Shown one piece after another: positions 45,229 through 48,468 of a stretch of 64,000 nt of DNA. The notes below the pieces were generated by a model, which had not been told where the DNA came from, searched no databases, and saw only the letters and a list, made by a program, of their open reading frames with translations. The translations under genes were made by a program, and so were the position numbers. This stretch comes from Naegleria gruberi (Eukaryota), in assembly GCA_000004985.1 (NCBI GenBank), contig GG738886.1, one strand, 5' to 3'. Position 1 is the first letter of the stretch; each line of letters opens with the position of its first letter.

Positions 45229-46454
45229 CTATTGGAAGTTTAATACAATGGTTAAATCACATAATCGTTTAGCTAGTCTTGTTTGTTGAAGTTTCCTTGC
45301 AAATTGGTCCAGTTTGGTATTCCTCTTTCTTGTCCGAGCAAGTAATTTCATTTCTCTTTTAGTATTTCCAATAATTTCTTCCGTTTTCATAGATTTCAGT
45401 ATTGTGAAATCCGAAAATATTGTATCATTTAATTTGTAAACTGGTGTAATATCCCAATCTCTAAACTCATCAAAATAGGGATGTAGAAGAGCTTGAGACA
45501 CTGTCATTCGATTATTTGGATTGAATTGTAAAAGGTTTTCCAATAAATCCAACTCATTACTATCCAAATAGGAGAATAAACTAGCTATCTGTCTCTTCTT
45601 TGGCTCACTTCCAATTACATTTTGAATGCAATCCTTAATCATTTCTGGTTTCGAAGAAATAAGTCCAATCTCTTCATCTGTGGGCATTCCTAAAATTTCA
45701 ATCATAGTAATGATCATATCAATAGTACTATTACTCCTTAACAATGGTTTTCGTAAAATAAGCTCAGCAAGTAGTAATCCAACACAGAACATGTCCATTT
45801 TGGCAGTGCACGAAAAATTAGTAGAAAATAACTCTTCAGGACTTCGATGAGGATTATTCCAAAGATACACTGTAACGAAAGTATCTCCTTCCCTTTGCCA
45901 ATTAAGAAACCCTTGCAGTGTAATTTCGCATTCAGTATTGACCATAATATTGAATGGCCTGATTCCTAAATGCACAATTCCATTCACATGTAAAATTCTC
46001 AATCCCACCAATAGCTGAAAAATTATATATTTTCTATGAATTAATTCCAAAGATAAACTCCTCAACACGGTATGAATATCAAAGAATTCAACATAAGTGC
46101 TCATAATAATCAGATCTTTTCCGATAACTTTCAACCTGCTTCCTAAATTCAAAGCTTTACAATCGGAATTATTTACACTCAAATTAATCATCAACATGGC
46201 ACTCCTACAAATCAGCAAATGGTAGGGATGTTCATCCTCCTCGGTTATTTCCTTCTCATCAAACAAATTACAATATTGCTTGATAAATAATTTATTCTTC
46301 CCTCTGAACCCTTTATAACATTTCAAATACTTTTTTGAGAATTATAATTCATTCCAATTCGTTTTTCCAATCATGATGAACCTACACTTTTGTCGGTTAT
46401 TTTTTCGAGTGAATGAAAGGATTTCTCCAGGTAGCTCAAGCTATCTTGATTCAT
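45229..46454 (-). CDS. MAPK/CDK-like pseudokinase with degenerate catalytic motifs. Two exons: 46454..46386 and 46329..45229
   Basis: The C-lobe is MAPK-like (ILGMPTDEEIGLISS..., NPNNRMTVSQALLHPYF). The catalytic loop reads HLGIRPFN instead of HRDLKPxN, there is no DFG, and there is no Gly-rich loop. Exon 1 (MNQDSLSYLEKSFHSLEKITDKS) ends AGT|GTAGGT. A 56-bp intron ends AAAAAG, giving a phase-0 join to YLKCYKGF... Confidence 0.5.
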
Positions 46455-46501
46455 TTTTTTTAAATTTTAAGGAATCCAGTTGAAAATTATTCTAAATAAG
46501 A

Positions 46502-48468
46502 TTATTTCATTAGAGAATCAATGCATTCTTTGAGAACTAATTTGTGGATTGGCTTTGTGAGTAGTTGATCAAAGAGTGGTGATTTCTCTATCAATACATC
46601 TCCTGTCAACGCTACAACCTTAATATCTCCTTGATGTCTATTTCTAAGAATTTTGGTTGCTTCAACTCCATCTAGAACTGGCATATTCTATAAAGAAATA
46701 TATTATTTTCTTTTAATTTAAAAGAAACTTACCAAATCTGTAATAATAAGCTTGTGCCTTCCCTTATCAAATAGTTCAATTAATTCTTTTCCGTCATTGG
46801 CAGCATCTACAGAATAACCAAGACTTTCAATAAGTTTTGTAATGACTCTCCTGTTCACAGAATTGTCATCAGCAATTAGAATTTCAGCTTTCGAGTTGCT
46901 TGCCTTATTTTGACAGCAAGTTGAAAAGAGACGAATATAATTTTCTTGAATGGCTAGTTGTCTCTTGATGGAAGGATCAATTTCGTGTAAAGATTCGCTA
47001 CTATTCTTACTTCTCTCTAATTTGCATTGTACAATTTCCAAAGGAAGAATTACAGTGAATTCTGCTCCACAATTTTCATCAGATTCCAATGTAATATCTC
47101 CTCTCATGGCTTGAACATTGTGTTTTACAGTTGAAAGTCCTAATCCACTCCTTTTTAAAGGATTAAAAAATGTTTAAGCTACATCTATACGTACCCAGGA
47201 ATGATTGACTGATTCAAATTATGTAACTGTGCAAAAGGTTCAAATATTTTGGCTTGTTTTGATTTTGGAATGCCAATTCCGTTATCTTTCACTTTGAAAA
47301 TGATATCTCTTTCAATAACTCCATTCACCTGTCGTTCATCTCCTTGGACAAAGCATTCCAAATCGATGGAATCTCCAATTTTTGATGCCTTTACGCCATT
47401 GGTCATAAGATTTGATATTACTTGATGTATTCTAGTTTGATTAGCTCTCACAAAGAGGTCTTTCGCTTGTTCATCAATTGAGACGTTCACATTGACTTGA
47501 AATTGTTTCGAATAACTCTTAATGATATTTCCCATCATTTTCACACAGTTATTCAAACTAAATATTTTGAAAAACTTGGTAGCCTCTGAAGATTTATCAT
47601 CTGACTTCTTTTCATGTTCAATTTTCACAAGTGTCAGAACATCCTCAATAAGATTGAGTAAAATTCCATCCGAGGAGGCAATTGTCTCAACTAACTCTCT
47701 TTGATATTCTGTTAGATTTGTCTCTCTCAACAATTCAACACTTCCCAAACTACTCAAACAAGGAGATCTAAACTCATGACTGATATGGCGAATAAAAACT
47801 TCCTTACTTGACAAGGCCATTTCTAACTCCTTTGCTGTTTGTTCCAATTTTGTTATTTTTGATTGGAGAGCTGAGGATGTTGACAATACATAATAGCTCA
47901 ATAAATAAATACACAAAGCAGTTGCCAAATTCTCGAATATTAACTCTATCGAATTCGAAAAGATCAAACTATGAACTATTGTTCCACAATATAAGAAAAA
48001 TGTTACAAAGAATGGAGCCAACGTATAATGCAATGAAGTCATCGTGTTTGATGACATGAGTATCAAAATATACATTGGAGAAAGGAGAGCCCGATTATCT
48101 GCCACCAAGAAGTACCTAAAACAAAACAAGAGCAATGAAACAGTCATTCTAACCTTTTCCTCTGCCTCTGTAGATCTCACAAGGCCCACTCCAAGCATGG
48201 AACGAATAAATTTTCCATTCACTATAACTCCAAATATAATACTACTCGTCATGATGATTAAATGTTGCCATCCCTTACAAAATGAATAAGCAATCAGAAG
48301 GGCATACTCCATTATTAGTACTTTTAAAATTACGTTATCCTTCATAGGAAGCGTAAGTACATGTTTAAAGAAGGGTCTTAGTCTCGGATGTAAACTATCA
48401 TATATTGCTTGATCCTCCAAATCCAAGGCAAATCCTCTCAAGGGATCCACTACTAATTTTCCCACCAT
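46502..48468 (-). CDS. Hybrid histidine kinase: N-terminal TM region, HisKA, HATPase_c, and a C-terminal receiver domain. Three exons: 48468..47195, 47150..46733 and 46687..46502
   Basis: H box ISHEFRSPC. G1 motif KVKDNGIGIP. G2 is reconstituted across intron 1 (IIPG|GSGLGLSTVK), with a GTACGT donor and a 44-bp intron. Receiver motifs ILIADDNSVNRR...LIITDL|NMPVLDGVEAT...LTKP are joined across a 45-bp GTAAGT intron. CDS length is 1878 nt, in frame (625 aa). Confidence 0.8.

Follow-up and report, generated by a model that had tools for sequence, protein, structure and literature searches.

Signalling from histidine kinases to mitogen-activated protein kinases (MAPKs) is established in yeast and plants, and also in Dictyostelium (cited in PMC9928731). 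In the yeast pathway that runs from Sln1-Ypd1-Ssk1 through Ssk2/22 and Pbs2 to Hog1, as in the osmosensing systems of plants and Dictyostelium, a hybrid histidine kinase and a MAPK-family protein belong together, but their genes lie apart, and the MAPK, which is active, is reached through a histidine phosphotransfer (HPt) protein, a response regulator and a MAP3K. Here we describe a locus of Naegleria gruberi (GenBank assembly GCA_000004985.1, contig GG738886.1) where a hybrid histidine kinase gene and a gene for a MAPK-like protein also stand together, in this case side by side on the minus strand, and where the MAPK-like protein appears to be a pseudokinase. All positions refer to the window, the 64,000-nucleotide stretch that we analysed, in which the two genes take up positions 45229-48468. 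Pseudokinases usually act as scaffolds, decoys or allosteric regulators (review PMC8141879), and like pseudokinases generally the window protein lacks two of the three defining residues and retains the fold, whereas its non-catalytic role, in contrast to that of the characterised examples, would be read solely from retained surface and core residues. On the histidine kinase side, N. gruberi has 24 such proteins, mostly transmembrane hybrid kinases without a known sensor domain (PMC6324907).

The explanation that we favour, with modest confidence, is that these are two separate neighbouring subtelomeric genes, that the pseudokinase protein acts non-catalytically, and that its adjacency to the histidine kinase is incidental. 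The parts of this explanation differ in strength. That the kinase-like protein is catalytically dead is very likely given the residues that it has lost, the adjacency is probably incidental, and we lean, somewhat less firmly, towards a functional protein and away from a relic. The pseudokinase gene would be made as protein, its product would occupy or scaffold MAPK-docking partners (MAP2Ks, phosphatases or substrates) as a decoy or adaptor, and its position beside the histidine kinase would reflect a compact, rearranged subtelomeric gene order, with no dedicated histidine kinase-to-MAPK module. The two genes and the motifs discussed below are as follows.

47195-48468, minus strand: histidine kinase exon 1, with the N-terminal hydrophobic helices, HisKA with the H-box His231 (47776-47778) and most of HATPase_c.
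46733-47150, minus strand: histidine kinase exon 2, with the G2 box, the linker and the first half of the receiver, in which Asp563 (46736-46738) is the phospho-acceptor.
46502-46687, minus strand: histidine kinase exon 3, with the second half of the receiver and the stop codon.
46455-46501, minus strand: spacer of 47 nucleotides, A/T-rich, from the histidine kinase stop to the pseudokinase ATG.
46386-46454, minus strand: pseudokinase exon 1, 23 codons, MNQDSLSYLEKSFHSLEKITDKS, aligning with the N-terminal strand of MAPK15-like proteins and of the compost-metagenome protein P0227.
46330-46385, minus strand: pseudokinase intron, 56 nucleotides, GTAGGT...AG, phase 0.
45229-46329, minus strand: pseudokinase exon 2, 366 codons and the stop, from the second half of the glycine-rich loop (G-loop) equivalent through the C-terminal helix.
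46324-46397, minus strand, across the intron: G-loop equivalent, with T20, K22 and L25 for ERK2 G32, G34 and G37.
45949-45972, minus strand: catalytic loop HLGIRPFN (ERK2 HRDLKPSN), with R148 changed to L, D149 changed to G, and Asn154 kept.
45907-45918, minus strand: DFG region LQGF (ERK2 ICDF), with Gly163 in place of Asp167.
45865-45873, minus strand: T-V-Y at the position of the MAPK T-E-Y, followed by a degenerate P+1 loop, LWNNPHRSPE.

Kinship with MAPKs is supported by comparisons of sequence and of predicted structure. Pfam Pkinase (PF00069) matches the protein with 73.3 bits, where the cut-off is 31.7 (E = 2.6e-20), at profile positions 72-263 only, which correspond to the end of the N-lobe through the C-lobe. 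The best sequence matches in the PDB are ERK1 and ERK2 (1.2e-32 and about 3e-29), followed by ERK7 of Toxoplasma and MPK4 of Arabidopsis; all top matches there are ERK1/2, ERK7 or MPK4, and the alignment spans the MAPK insert and the C-terminal extension to residue 342, which is about 30 residues beyond the HPY motif. By blastp, two MAPK15-like proteins score 139 and 137 bits versus 114 for human ERK2. An AlphaFold2 model of the exon-2 product, computed from a 21-sequence alignment, has a bilobal kinase fold with an overall pTM of 0.73 and per-residue confidence (pLDDT) of 83-96 in the C-lobe and 55-73 in the N-lobe, and a fold search with this model returns ERK2, Toxoplasma ERK7 and Arabidopsis MPK4 as the nearest solved structures. 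At the level of sequence and predicted structure, these results show a full-length MAPK fold that is somewhat nearer to the ERK7/MAPK15 type than to ERK1/2. The protein shares with ERK7/MAPK15- and ERK1/2-type MAPKs (CMGC) a fold that extends beyond the kinase core, the insert, the L16-like segment and about 33-36% similarity over the C-lobe.

What the protein has lost was read from a residue-by-residue table against ERK2, together with what it has retained. Among the catalytic elements GxGxxG, the VAIK Lys, the αC Glu, the HRD Asp, the catalytic-loop Asn and the DFG Asp, only the β3 (VAIK) Lys (K40; ERK2 K54) and the Asn (N150; ERK2 N154) are kept. All G-loop glycines are gone, as is the HRD Arg, and the αC Glu (ERK2 E71) is S; both arginines that bind the phospho-Thr (ERK2 R67 and R172) are lost, the P+1 loop is degenerate, and the N-lobe has diverged so far that Pfam leaves it unaligned, all in contrast to ERK-type MAPKs. 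A protein with the kinase fold counts as a pseudokinase if any of three residues (VAIK Lys, HRD Asp or DFG Asp) is missing, and here Gly takes the place of both aspartates; the residues required for productive Mg-ATP binding and for phosphotransfer are thus absent, and the protein, as judged from these residues, cannot be a conventional MAPK enzyme. Also kept are the APE Glu, the αF Asp, the αH-αI Arg, the MAPK insert and the C-terminal L16-like segment, along with most of the hydrophobic groove that docks D-motifs, namely the equivalents of L121, H125, Y128 (conserved in ERK-type MAPKs as well) and L157, and an acidic ED-site residue. T176-V-Y178 aligns with ERK2 T185-E-Y187, the activation-loop pair that a MAP2K phosphorylates in MAPKs, but the significance of this motif is doubtful because it is not conserved in P0227, which has D-V-G there.

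The kinase-like gene has two exons on the minus strand and a 389-amino-acid product, with its ATG at 46454. The long kinase-like open reading frame (ORF) was first seen at 45229-46326 on the minus strand, and a short exon was found upstream of it. The splice model is supported because homology continues across the exon junction, where EKITDKS/YLKCYKG (the slash marks the junction) aligns with LGTACKQSYSLCYKA in P0227 and with LGKGAYGIVWKA in canonical MAPK15-like proteins. Exon 1 encodes the strand before the G-loop and contributes no glycine to it (ITDKS/YLKCYKG versus IGEGAYGMVCSA), and the intron is similar in size to those of the histidine kinase gene (44 and 45 nucleotides). The preliminary description of this stretch had proposed a MAPK-like protein with a well-conserved C-lobe that has lost the HRD Asp, the DFG motif and the Gly-rich loop and is very likely dead, and had named intact catalytic residues in a missed upstream exon as the finding that would overturn this; the upstream exon does exist, it restores none of these residues, and the proposal holds on every point, with loss of the αC Glu in addition.

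Public annotation has concealed this protein. The sole database entry identical to it is a 189-amino-acid "predicted protein" (NAEGRDRAFT_70849, XP_002674169.1, D2VPG2; 45229-45798, minus strand), which begins at MDMFCVG in the middle of the C-lobe and corresponds to the last 189 of the 389 amino acids. The public model of the neighbouring histidine kinase (P0002, 753 amino acids) starts instead in the next gene upstream, which encodes a 2H phosphoesterase-like protein, and joins the histidine kinase at residue 83. We rejected this fusion as a likely artefact: the 2H ORF is closed by a stop codon (...CEVFLG*, 48841) that lies 372 nucleotides before the histidine kinase ATG, the fusion would call for an intron of about 620 nucleotides where the three other introns here are 44-56 nucleotides, and the 82 residues that it skips are conserved in the N. 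fowleri protein P0003. P0002 is therefore probably an annotation artefact, we model the locus as three distinct genes in tandem (2H, histidine kinase and pseudokinase), and both public gene models look wrong when set against the predicted exons. The pseudokinase is probably missing from the N. gruberi kinome and from its MAPK counts. We see the practical value of this work in annotation, since a full-length MAPK-derived pseudokinase is hidden behind a 189-amino-acid "predicted protein", which would affect Naegleria kinome counts, and since a probably mis-modelled fusion would distort domain-architecture surveys of eukaryotic two-component systems by adding a spurious "2H + histidine kinase" architecture. 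Pseudokinases derived from active kinase families are already known; what is new here is this MAPK-derived, mis-annotated one, which would be a further example, from a free-living protist, of a signalling kinase that has become non-catalytic.

We searched for relatives exhaustively with phmmer in 1.84 billion representative proteins, a collection that contains the annotated proteins of N. fowleri and N. lovaniensis. The search returned the 189-amino-acid self-fragment, several proteins in which a duplicated MAPK domain inflates the score, and thousands of ordinary MAPKs at 1e-32 or weaker. A word-indexed orthologue search found one canonical MAPK only, and missed NAEGRDRAFT_70849 because that entry begins mid C-lobe. 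When the 150 phmmer matches listed were screened for degenerate motifs, several independent MAPK-derived pseudokinase-like proteins emerged, among them P0126 (two tandem MAPK-like domains, both with HRC and with DFK or DFR), P0175, P0206, P0221 (Pelomyxa schiedti), P0228 (Arcella intermedia) and P0258. None of these six has the substitutions of the window protein, and catalytic loss in MAPK paralogues seems to recur across protists.

Only one among the 150 matches listed has the dead motifs of the window protein, namely P0227, a protein of 367 amino acids from compost-metagenome contigs (UOUE01000418, UOTZ01000491, UOTX01001720 and ERZ746985 NODE_70). A profile search and a scan of JGI metagenomes (80 loci) found no members beyond this compost organism. 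The motifs compare as follows.

Catalytic loop: canonical HRD, window protein HLG, P0227 YLG.
Metal-binding loop: canonical (C/A)DFG, window protein QGF, P0227 QGS.
G-loop: canonical AYGIVWK, window protein SYLKCYK, P0227 SYSLCYK.

For a wider comparison we took the 74 alignment columns in which conservation among 93 canonical MAPKs is 80% or higher. The window protein is changed at 41 of these columns, and both it and P0227 are derived at 19, where they are identical in 8 cases, as compared with 27 of 234 in 27 control pairs of degenerate MAPK-like proteins (binomial P = 7e-4). Shared identical changes include R to L and D to G in HRD, D to G in DFG, and A to S and V to C in the G-loop. Both proteins are MAPK15-like, but P0227 is much closer to canonical MAPK15 (40% identity, versus 29% overall to the window protein), lacks the catalytic-loop Asn and the T-x-Y, and has no histidine kinase neighbour. 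Near-identical variants of P0227 are present in at least four assemblies (L007, 10001-11104; L031, L034 and L037), one variant having 355 amino acids and an altered C-terminus. The G+C content of the compost contigs is about 36%, their genetic code is the standard one, and they contain few long ORFs; translation with the ciliate code was tried and gave only junk ORFs. The shared motifs suggest a dead state of long standing, and common descent of a long-lived pseudokinase lineage is suggestive, not established, on this evidence. If the shared motifs do reflect common descent, they would mark a long-lived pseudokinase lineage within the MAPK family.

Several observations weigh against our favoured explanation. 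The official annotation covers just the C-terminal 189 amino acids of the pseudokinase, and a literature search with its gene identifiers found no mention of it. No close orthologue appears among the 150 phmmer matches listed, N. fowleri and N. lovaniensis included. The neighbour-joining (NJ) grouping of the window protein with P0227 has a bootstrap of 75/200, which falls to 3/200 without the 8 motif columns, so that phylogenetic support for the grouping is gone once these are removed. Among the four compost variants, the ratio of nonsynonymous to synonymous polymorphism (pN/pS) is about 0.5-2.3 over at most about 25 differences, with no sign of purifying selection. As for docking, the acidic pair of the CD site is half gone (D318 kept, D321 changed to I) and the FRS pocket is altered, and we infer a docking function from the retained residues alone. 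Finally, the 47-nucleotide spacer is shorter than 29 of 30 same-strand stop-to-start spacers that we read from annotated N. fowleri and N. lovaniensis loci (median about 210 nucleotides, one of 50 or fewer), so that the two genes may be transcriptionally coupled.

The alternative that survives best is that the gene is a relic, a subtelomeric MAPK copy that is drifting neutrally, is still open and has no cellular function. We consider this rather unlikely, but several observations are compatible with it: the telomere is 12.5 kb from the ATG end of the gene and 13.7 kb from its stop-codon end, 41 of 74 conserved positions have changed and the N-lobe is barely recognisable, the listed matches contain no Naegleria orthologue, half of the protein is absent from public annotation, and pN/pS is around 1 among the variants of its sole look-alike. 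It is harder to reconcile with the reading frame. An open frame of 366 codons at this base composition (about 33% G+C in the window) has a chance of about 8e-13 for exon 2 alone, and the 389-codon frame is open despite a divergence beyond what unconstrained sequence survives without stops. Losses are also selective, in that residues critical for the fold (β3 Lys, APE Glu, αF Asp, αH-αI Arg and the docking groove) are kept and catalytic ones are gone, the C-lobe is confidently modelled, and the inactivating substitutions are possibly common to P0227. We therefore lean towards a functional protein, and suppose that it is expressed because the spliced frame is intact despite the changes at conserved positions.

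The upstream gene has three exons on the minus strand and a 625-amino-acid product, with intron donors GTACGT and GTAAGT. Its Pfam matches are HisKA (3.8e-12), HATPase_c (5.4e-23) and Response_reg (3.6e-18), all motifs are there, the N, G1 and G2 boxes included (HISHEFRSP, NLMTNGVK, DNGIG, GSGLG, DDN, D(563)LNMPVLDG and KP), and three or more hydrophobic helices lie at its N-terminus. These features show what is predicted to be an intact, membrane-anchored hybrid histidine kinase, one of the 24 of N. gruberi. It combines N-terminal helices with HisKA, HATPase_c and REC domains and has no known sensor domain, as do most transmembrane hybrid histidine kinases of this species (Excavata groups II-IV of Kabbara et al., PMC6324907), and there is nothing unusual about it save that its public model is fused to the 2H gene. 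The nearest N. fowleri relative is P0003 (FDP41_012257), with 52% identity and a sister position in an NJ tree computed without bootstrap. N. lovaniensis and N. fowleri each have a tandem pair of paralogous hybrid histidine kinases from this family (L001, 10001-14479; L002, 10001-15100), within a syntenic block of GMP_PDE_delta, Glyco_transf_22 and cofilin, then the two histidine kinases, then an acetyl-CoA-synthetase-like gene, which indicates local duplication within the histidine kinase family. The window histidine kinase belongs to another branch and another neighbourhood than these tandem paralogues.

Next in line is the possibility that the two genes form a functional module, co-transcribed or co-regulated, in which the pseudokinase links the output of the phosphorelay to MAPK-pathway partners as a non-catalytic counterpart of Sln1-Hog1. 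The same strand and the short spacer fit this, as does the histidine kinase-to-MAPK coupling established in yeast and plants (cited in PMC9928731), and co-transcription, or overlap of promoter and terminator, is possible judging from the spacing. Read-through cannot fuse the two proteins, since the reading frames are offset by 50 nucleotides, not a multiple of 3, and there is no consensus donor just before the histidine kinase stop. A fusion might arise if a long alternative intron began within the receiver exon; such splicing would delete the conserved Lys of the receiver. At the locus of the N. fowleri orthologue (L006, ±10 kb) there is no kinase-like sequence even at E <= 100, five more histidine kinase loci (two from N. 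fowleri, two from N. lovaniensis and one Naegleria-like ENA contig) have none within ±8-10 kb, and the P0227 locus has no histidine kinase within ±10 kb, so that none of the six Naegleria histidine kinase loci shows the adjacency, nor does that of P0227. In the Naegleria pangenome study N. gruberi was considered too distant for synteny analysis (PMC9928731), little synteny being shared between N. gruberi and N. fowleri overall, and for this reason non-conservation is weak evidence against coupling. Among the genes examined, from position 40 kb or so up to the telomere, we found no HPt protein, response regulator, MAP3K or MAP2K, and hence no module of the Sln1-Hog1 type, although partners were not searched for genome-wide. 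We also know of no description of operon-like transcription in Naegleria, which we count against a module. Together these points make a functional module quite unlikely, and current views of two-component or MAPK signalling are unchanged by this locus.

The preliminary description had read the locus as a tandem signalling pair, about 50 bp apart, within a dense cluster of signalling genes near a chromosome end. Its description of the DNA was accurate: the spacing is 47 nucleotides, the same-orientation histidine kinase is intact, a 2H gene and a receptor cyclase are nearby, and the chromosome end is there. The interpretation fared less well. A functional pair is not borne out by the loci described above, and the comparison with relatives that it called for found only the histidine kinase in common between the whole 59-kb window and L006. 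As regards clustering, we take the gene count of N. gruberi to be about 15,700. With that total, histidine kinases, cyclases and kinases make up about 2.4% of the genes, and three such genes among seven neighbours are expected about once per genome by chance, as a rough estimate. The "dense cluster" is not statistically remarkable. The species has 265 protein kinases and at least 81 cyclases (PMC9928731).

A more ambitious reading joins the two ideas: the window protein and P0227 would represent an old clade of pseudokinases derived from ERK7/MAPK15, recognised here for the first time, which persisted although both catalytic aspartates were lost via the same substitutions (HRD to xLG and DFG to QG), and in N. 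gruberi one of them would be transcriptionally coupled through the 47-nucleotide spacer to a hybrid histidine kinase, as a non-catalytic bridge between two-component and MAPK signalling. We hold this to be improbable. Some "pseudokinases", such as WNK, CASK and SelO-type proteins, turned out to be active by non-canonical mechanisms. That the window protein is likewise still an enzyme is highly improbable, since the β3 Lys, the catalytic-loop Asn and a T-x-Y are present but the catalytic base Asp and the Mg-binding Asp are both Gly, the αC Glu and all G-loop glycines are gone, P0227 lacks the Asn and the T-x-Y as well, and the N-lobe is modelled with low confidence.

The pair lies among the following neighbours.

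41960-43360, minus strand: F-box/LRR-like gene, beyond the MAPEG gene.
44730-45143, plus strand: MAPEG-family membrane protein gene, convergent with the pseudokinase gene, 85 nucleotides from stop to stop.
48841-49599, minus strand: 2H phosphoesterase-like gene, three exons, Pfam 2_5_RNA_ligase2 (1.9e-12).
49739-50721, minus strand: overlapping ORFs of 233 and 101 amino acids between the 2H gene and the cyclase, the 233-amino-acid ORF having no Pfam match.
53079-57752, plus strand: receptor-type nucleotide cyclase, about 1,500 amino acids from ORFs and Pfam, the final gene before the telomere.
57753-57802: assembly gap of 50 N.
58978-59364, plus strand: telomeric array, (GGGTTT) x 64.7, the last 387 bases before N padding, with the G-rich strand running 5' to 3' towards the end.

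The MAPEG and F-box/LRR-like genes have no evident tie to the histidine kinase and pseudokinase pair. The overlapping ORFs of 233 and 101 amino acids are probably one spliced gene, and the roughly 2.3 kb that follow (50722-53078) contain short ORFs only. The main ORF of the cyclase runs from 53331, 4.9 kb from the histidine kinase ATG, with a putative signal-peptide exon at 53079-53282. Its domains by Pfam are Peripla_BP_6 twice (3.9e-50; Peripla_BP_6/ANF_receptor, in two matched stretches) and Guanylate_cyc (3.8e-24), with a transmembrane segment, and its 3' end is broken off by the assembly gap. Beyond the gap, about 1.2 kb of A/T-rich sequence without a long ORF (57803-58977) leads directly to the telomeric array. 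The last base of the window that is not N is 59364, followed by N padding, and the window holds a genuine N. gruberi chromosome end.

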